Virus record (IMG/VR): IMGVR_UViG_2706794681_000014
Length of the DNA: 6,146 nucleotides
From: a virus
Taxonomy: Duplodnaviria; Heunggongvirae; Uroviricota; Caudoviricetes
Direction: 5' to 3' (one strand)
The position numbers and the translations under genes were made by a program. Below are positions 878 through 1,268 of the stretch, piece after piece. The notes beneath the pieces are model-generated. The model was not told where the DNA came from. It did no database searches and saw only the letters and a program-made list of their open reading frames with translations. Position 1 is the stretch's first letter; every line of letters begins with the position of its first letter.

Positions 878-1268
878 GAGAGTGGCGCTATGTGCCATTG
901 CATGGTGCCGGGTGCCTCCCGGTGAATTCAGTACCAGCACCTGAATCCGCGATTATCCCATATACCTACTCGCTGATTGCCCCTCCGCACAGGGGGATTC
1001 ACCATGCCAGTTTCTTTTAACAAACTCCCCGCAAACCAGACAACAGTCAACCGCCTGAATTGTGAAGTATTTAAAAATTTCTCCCGCTAACTGATACCCG
1101 GCTAACAGTCTGGCGTTTTCTTTTTCAGCAACGGGAAAGCAACAACCACCACACCCGCCACCAGCACACCGTCAGCCAGCACTGACATTATCCGGCTGCT
1201 GCAATGCCATTCACAAAAACAGTAAGCAATCACTTTTTACCGTAACAGGTGATAATCCAGATATGTAT

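Follow-up and report, generated by a model that had tools for sequence, protein, structure and literature searches.

A Predicted STnc100-family Small RNA Gene beside a Probable tciB Remnant at the Cargo Site of an Escherichia coli Lambdoid Prophage

Results

The window, by which we mean the whole stretch of 6,146 nucleotides that was analyzed, covers the cargo ("moron") site in the late region of an Escherichia coli lambdoid prophage, whose late genes lie on the minus strand. In transcription order, the genes listed here begin with RusA (5644-5270), which is followed by a Q-like antiterminator (5273-4146), a DNA methyltransferase (3744-2500), and three tRNAs (Met/Ile-CAT, Arg-TCG, and Arg-TCT; 2459-2212), all on the minus strand. 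A three-tRNA set between the methylase and the cargo is the typical arrangement for Stx-type lambdoid phages; the CAT tRNA is called Met by ARAGORN and Ile in the annotation of related genomes. A masked run (4162-4442) where the Q-like gene has its 3' end is flanked by a direct repeat, CGGAAAAATCAACCT(T/A)GTTACC...TTACCTTTTTTA, at 4124-4161 and 4443-4472.

Farther along the minus strand is an ORF of 117 aa (1622-1269), with its probable start at residue 10, that matches PHROG 2873 (233.9 bits), a family of unknown function; it is unannotated in the RefSeq genomes that share part of its sequence. On the other side, convergent with the small RNA (sRNA) described below, lies a plus-strand homologue of iraM (486-821; NCBIfam NF007393, 162 bits). 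IraM is an anti-adaptor that protects RpoS, and its homologue here is prophage cargo. A perfect 12-bp inverted repeat (791-802 and 813-824) spans the iraM stop codon and may be the terminator of that gene. On the plus strand, no T-run accompanies the hairpin that terminates the sRNA, and read-through from iraM would therefore be antisense to the sRNA. Beyond iraM, a DUF1737 fragment (240-52, minus strand) is matched by Pfam. The presence of Q, RusA, tRNAs, IraM, and DUF1737/esterase agrees with a lambdoid late-region cargo site.

The interval from 878 to 1268 had been described in an earlier note, made from the letters alone, as a GC-rich, ORF-free island that might hold an sRNA or a decayed gene. 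It is indeed GC-rich (49%, versus 30-36% on the iraM side), and it contains no ORF of 60 aa or more. "ORF-free" is true only at that cut-off, however, as a 43-aa ORF of the DUF3927 family lies on the minus strand at 1233-1102 and is annotated in RefSeq (WP_000562553.1). Loci of this kind are commonplace in E. coli lambdoid prophages; the sRNA here is already catalogued, and there is no new element in the locus. A 471-bp stretch (window 830-1300) is 100% identical among the records listed, and in genomes with the identical stretch a holin-lysozyme-spanin cassette comes next; E. coli 042 is one strain whose locus is identical. Of 5426 complete E. coli genomes, 2860 have some match to this stretch, at up to 12 places per genome, and 1185 have a single match that covers at least 80% of it.

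A cmscan search of Rfam matches the minus strand at 1036-847 to STnc100 (RF02076), a prophage sRNA of Gammaproteobacteria, with 132.4 bits (E 6.7e-30; model positions 1-206), where the gathering score is 47 bits. The minus-strand sRNA that had been proposed to end at a terminator at 877-841 is, by this search, a full-length and high-scoring member of the family. Relative to the STnc100 consensus, the window copy is missing 11 + 3 nt of the variable region.

The predicted transcript runs from 1007 to 847 on the minus strand and would be about 157-161 nt long. The minimum free energy fold of 1007-847 (-69.5 kcal/mol, z -2.96) reproduces the family architecture exactly, with P1 enclosing P2, P3, and P4, and with a linker and an intrinsic terminator thereafter. 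The conserved 5' domain (1007-900) comprises P1 (1007-1000 with 907-900), P2 (995-991 with 984-980), a short helix (973-970 with 952-949), P3 (948-941 with 931-924), and P4 (922-918 with 912-908, closing the loop AGGCA). The variable linker AAUGGCACAUAGCGCCACUCUC (899-878, 22 nt) contains a small hairpin (897-894 with 886-883). The terminator (877-847) has a stem of 877-869 with 864-856, a loop at 868-865, and the tail UUUAUAUUG, and is indicated by a terminator scan (stem 877-856 plus T-run), the fold, and covariation alike. The earlier note had pointed to two GC hairpins, CCGGG-TGCCT-CCCGG at 908-922 and CCCC...GGGGG at 980-996, and to a minus-strand terminator; all three are present, as P4, P2, and the terminator of STnc100, respectively.

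To examine this structure without relying on Rfam, family copies were collected from viral contigs by the pattern TGGTGAATCC-N70-100-CCGGCACCA, which gave 120 loci with ~100 distinct copies, of which 72 representatives were aligned. This pattern fixes 19 nt in the alignment, and invariance at those positions is therefore by construction. RNAalifold on the 72 representatives recovers P1, P2, the invariant P4, and a covarying terminator. P1 is formed by GCAUGGUG and CACCAUGC, and its first pair is GC in 33 sequences, AU in 27, and GU in 9; in P2, a CG pair is changed to UA in 7-8 sequences. On the consensus structure 95.1% of cells are paired, versus 40-51% in controls with slid partners, and both the count of double-change cells (219 versus 21-65) and the covariation score (0.294 versus 0.05-0.09) likewise exceed those controls. 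Because MAFFT misaligned the 8-bp P3, this helix was compared after anchoring instead. Its stem occurs in 39 distinct sequences, and all eight pairs form in 46 of 67 cores, as compared with 0.9% of controls.

Conservation is distributed very unevenly along the RNA. In 99 of 103 copies P4 and the loop that it closes (ACCGGGAGGCACCCGG) do not vary at all, and UGGUGAAUCC together with P2 is ~81% conserved across copies, whereas the linker falls into 56 distinct types among the 103 copies, with a mean identity of 33%, which is the random level. Across copies the linker also recombines independently of the middle region. The window copy has a terminator and a 22-nt linker, which might serve an Hfq-dependent base-pairing sRNA, but its U-tail is interrupted and would suit Hfq less well than do the U-runs found in many relatives.

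Two copies on the same strand occur in ten of the viral contigs, ~270-960 nt apart in most of them and ~3.3 kb apart in one. The paired copies in these tandem arrays differ in their middle and linker modules. In the window, an unmasked island of 60 nt (1943-2002, minus strand), flanked by masked runs at 1685-1942 and 2003-2213, is the sequence that lies directly 3' of an STnc100 terminator in four of these contigs, and in the same four a second STnc100 copy lies ~250 nt beyond such sequence. Because this sequence follows STnc100 terminators elsewhere, the masked 211 nt between the tRNA-Arg and the island could hide another copy. When the ~480-nt segment containing the masked runs was sought in near-identical genomes, it was missing from one and differently arranged in another.

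The sRNA has a predicted promoter of its own at 1043-1014 on the minus strand, consisting of a -35 element TTGTCT (1043-1038), an 18-nt spacer, and an extended -10 element, TG (1022-1021) plus TAAAAG (1019-1014). It is modest, with 8 of 12 matches to the sigma70 consensus and a -10 that is without the final T. Across the family, the sequence 5' of UGGUGAAUCC is unrelated between lineages (37% identity), and yet an anchored sigma70 match of at least 8/12 is found in 63 of 79 distinct upstream flanks, versus 10% of shuffles. These promoters mostly have spacers of 18 or 17 nt and -10 elements that end 7 or 9 nt before UGGUGAAUCC. Transcription is predicted to start at G1007 (plus or minus 1), and the 5' end mapped for PasD2 (PMC8550237) falls on the corresponding G of GCAUGGUG. 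From the conserved promoter and this 5' end, the sRNA would be ~160 nt long, in place of the ~310 nt suggested earlier; both of its ends are predicted from the sequence, the 3' end lying near 850. On this assignment the first ~30 positions of the RF02076 model, and of the window match, would be promoter and not RNA. Just 5' of the -35 element, a motif TCACAATTCAG...GTTGAC(T/A)G (1075-1044, minus strand) is kept in E. coli-type copies even though the flanks diverge, and may serve to bind a regulator or act as a second -35 element. In Salmonella LT2, according to a figure legend, RpoD and RpoN bind at the promoter regions of multiple STnc100 copies (PMC10794520).

The 43-aa ORF upstream of the sRNA scores 95.6 bits against Pfam PF13064 (DUF3927; cut-off 25 bits), but its match to PHROG 1470 (TciB-like) spans only profile positions 23-51 of 54. 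Intact TciB relatives have 50-54 aa and two hydrophobic helices, and the ORF falls short of a full-length protein of that kind (about 52-54 aa with both helices). Alignment of the proteins shows that the C-terminal 32 residues of TciB (SSRIMSVLADGVLVAGVVVVAFPLLKKK...) are conserved, whereas the first transmembrane helix has been lost, with IAYCFCEWHC in its place, as have the ancestral start codons. At the DNA level, alignment with the tciB gene of phage JLK-2012 reveals that 11, 4, and 5 nt have been deleted and that the ancestral GTG start is now GTT. The sequence at 1233-1102 is thus a deletion-scarred remnant of tciB, a gene for a small two-helix membrane protein. Given the deletions and the lost start, there is a decayed gene here, as had been suspected, but it lies outside the frame and the place proposed for it. 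The placement of a DUF3927 gene immediately upstream of the RNA recurs, being found at 29 of 122 copies and also at PasD2.

The promoter that the earlier note had assigned to the sRNA, TTGTGA-18-GATAAT at 1216-1187 on the minus strand, does exist as a sequence with 9 of 12 matches, but it is inside this remnant. Its GATAAT covers the codons of the conserved R-I-M in the SRIM motif of TciB, and its -35 falls in the deletion-scarred segment; the site is probably fortuitous.

Discussion

The minus strand from 1268 to 847 very probably comprises an STnc100-family sRNA gene, with its own promoter and terminator, and a remnant of tciB, set in the moron site of a lambdoid prophage. This settles the annotation of the island as a catalogued prophage sRNA gene beside a pseudogene-like remnant. 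The finding is already known, in that the window copy is a straightforward STnc100 member and the relationship of PasD to STnc100, along with their distribution among prophages, has been described in print (preprint 10.64898/2026.05.13.724894).

Coding alternatives were weighed against this reading. One is that the interval is a frameshifted or decayed gene in a Cys-rich frame of the minus strand (1171-956), which had been put forward on the grounds that 72 open codons without a start would be improbable by chance (roughly 3%). The frame is open over that span, although it is not free of starts, as it has one ATG, its sole start codon, at codon 71. The length is unexceptional; when the interval 878-1268 was shuffled 2000 times with dinucleotides preserved, and all six frames and all positions were counted, 70% of the shuffles had some frame open for 72 codons or more, the mean open stretch being 83. 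The frame has no match in Pfam or NCBIfam, and it shares sequence with the DUF3927 ORF, which is read in another frame, with the sRNA promoter, and with the structured RNA. In comparison with related loci, it is broken in diverged relatives of the same layout, the longest stretches being 27 in one and 38 in another. Elsewhere it cannot exist at all, because the spacer between gene and RNA, 97 nt in the window, is 36 or 65 nt in other relatives. The Cys-rich frame is a chance open frame, and a decayed gene in it is highly improbable. The same can be said of a small plus-strand protein encoded antisense to the sRNA, which would be either the 28-codon ORF at 1004-1090 or a partial coding sequence called by PGAP at about 892-1017. 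The translation of the 28-codon ORF is as had been reported, and GGGGGA does stand upstream of it, but coding is unsupported, neither Pfam nor PHROG matching either candidate; moreover, its ATG is the complement of a CAU in P1 that is replaced in most lineages, and it is the RNA structure, not the codons, that tracks conservation. PGAP does place a "hypothetical protein" pseudo-CDS on the plus strand here (892-1017) and another antisense to PasD2 (2198-2439, minus strand, of contig L124), but it marks its own calls as incomplete or frameshifted. Most likely, such calls reflect a spurious protein family that was derived from the RNA gene. Translation of the sRNA itself from an AUG at 903-901, behind the GGGAGG of P4, was also considered and rejected; the ORF crosses the terminator, and the AUG is unconserved, with CACCAC in many lineages.

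If an STnc100 RNA is accepted, its origin and its working part could still differ from the account above. The sRNA might be mainly the 3' part of a longer transcript, from which processing would release it; this transcript could start at the 1216-1187 site, at the gene upstream, or at PR', the late promoter. The 3' UTRs of mRNAs are the source of many enterobacterial sRNAs, there are genes on the same strand upstream, and on induction Q-modified late transcription must traverse the region. This origin is nonetheless quite unlikely for the bulk of the RNA, as a canonical promoter is held at a fixed distance from the first helix in lineages whose flanks are otherwise unrelated, the predicted start coincides with the 5' end of PasD2, and the conserved R-I-M codons account for the -10 of the promoter-like site. 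A different possibility is that the invariant 5' domain is the functional part, a platform or sponge that binds the ribosome or a protein (e.g. CsrA, ProQ, or a phage protein), pairing being secondary. The domain is more invariant than a simple base-pairing sRNA needs, and thus the main function may lie elsewhere. The contrast of P4, UGGUGAAUCC, and P2 with random-level linkers is in favor of this idea, as are GGA/GGAGG-like motifs in both conserved hairpins, and PasD2 is mentioned in a CsrA-interactome preprint. Set against it are the position of the GGA motifs, which sit at stem/loop junctions and not centrally in loops, the share of the invariance that stems from the search pattern, and the PasD chimeras, which fall in the 3' linker. 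On balance, we consider a primary role for the 5' domain unlikely.

The best reading, in our view, remains that of an Hfq-associated, trans-acting sRNA with its specificity in the linker at 899-878. The sigma70 promoter at 1043-1014 would start the RNA near G1007, and the terminator at 877-856 would end it near 850, giving ~160 nt. Such an RNA would have three parts: a near-invariant, multi-helix 5' domain in which GCAUGGUG/CACCAUGC form the closing helix, a linker that is single-stranded and hypervariable, and a terminator hairpin with a U-rich tail. Like a classic moron, the unit consists of a gene between a promoter and a terminator that belong to it, and expression from a repressed prophage is therefore possible. 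If it behaves as characterized relatives do, the sRNA would be made in the lysogen, be bound by Hfq, and pair with trans-encoded RNAs through the linker, which is presumed to be the target-pairing region.

A broader proposal would combine both parts of the RNA. STnc100 and PasD might be a modular prophage sRNA platform, in which a near-invariant four-helix 5' domain (UGGUGAAUCC, P2, and the P4 loop GGGAGGCA) serves as a scaffold for a protein or the ribosome and linker seeds are swapped between prophages by recombination. We put this forward tentatively, as a possible but doubtful generalization. If true, the conserved 5' domain has an undescribed function of its own, such as a sponge, a protein guide, or a stability or packaging signal.

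The family is of some interest, being multi-copy in pathogenic E. coli. In Stx phages, STnc100 adjoins stx2, and variants within STnc100 were picked as predictors of HUS (PMC12711010). Eleven copies are annotated in EDL933, with transcriptome reads for most of them and one positive by Northern blot (PMC5331693). RT-qPCR on outer membrane vesicles from STEC strains has also detected STnc_100, with published primers that match window 986-1005 and 913-932 exactly and would give the 93-bp amplicon reported (PMC12370729). For annotators, it should be useful that the Rfam model appears to begin with ~30 nt of promoter in place of RNA, that the linker is hypervariable beside a near-invariant 5' domain, and that pipelines put spurious partial coding sequences antisense to STnc100 RNAs.

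Among known systems, the window copy is alike to STnc100 in helices, invariant motifs, and prophage moron context. PasD1 and PasD2 of EPEC E2348/69 (homologues of EcOnc13) share the architecture, begin with GCAUGGUGAAUCC at the 5' end, and lie directly 3' of a DUF3927 gene, the PasD2 gene being 41 nt downstream of it. PasD2 is a 172-nt RNA that was detected by Northern blot and RIL-seq and whose stability depends on Hfq, and the seed with which PasD binds many core and virulence mRNAs lies in its linker, between P1 and the terminator (PMC8550237). PasD2 differs from the window copy in P2, P4, and the linker, and it scores 41.4 bits on RF02076, below the gathering score, versus 132.4 for the window copy. 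The PasD seed UGUGAG is absent from the window linker, which places the window copy outside PasD proper.

IpeX, of the K-12 prophage DLP12, is a prophage sRNA of similar size in the interval between Q and the lysis genes. As a relative it was set aside, the quuD-nmpC-essD region of DLP12 having no match to RF02076 at E up to 0.1. The iraM locus of K-12 was likewise discarded as a comparison; iraM there abuts the e14/icdC junction, and the downstream region is thus not comparable.

The anti-sRNAs AsxR and AgvB (RF02703 and RF02702) occupy the same moron site as the window sRNA and also combine a conserved scaffold with a variable end (PMC4104026), but they measure 51-60 nt, are encoded on the opposite strand, and show no sequence relationship to the window sRNA; at E up to 1, neither family is matched anywhere in the window. 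EcOnc27/sRNA103 of EHEC overlaps an STnc100 call and lies at the same site, between PR'/cargo and the lysis genes (PMC4104026, PMC7873438, PMC12711010); it is downstream of stx2B and binds Hfq, as found by CRAC (PMC4104026, PMC7873438). The copies in Stx2 phages are ~79% identical to the window over 851-1081. They follow stx2B and face AsxR, whereas the sRNA of the window follows the tciB remnant and faces iraM.
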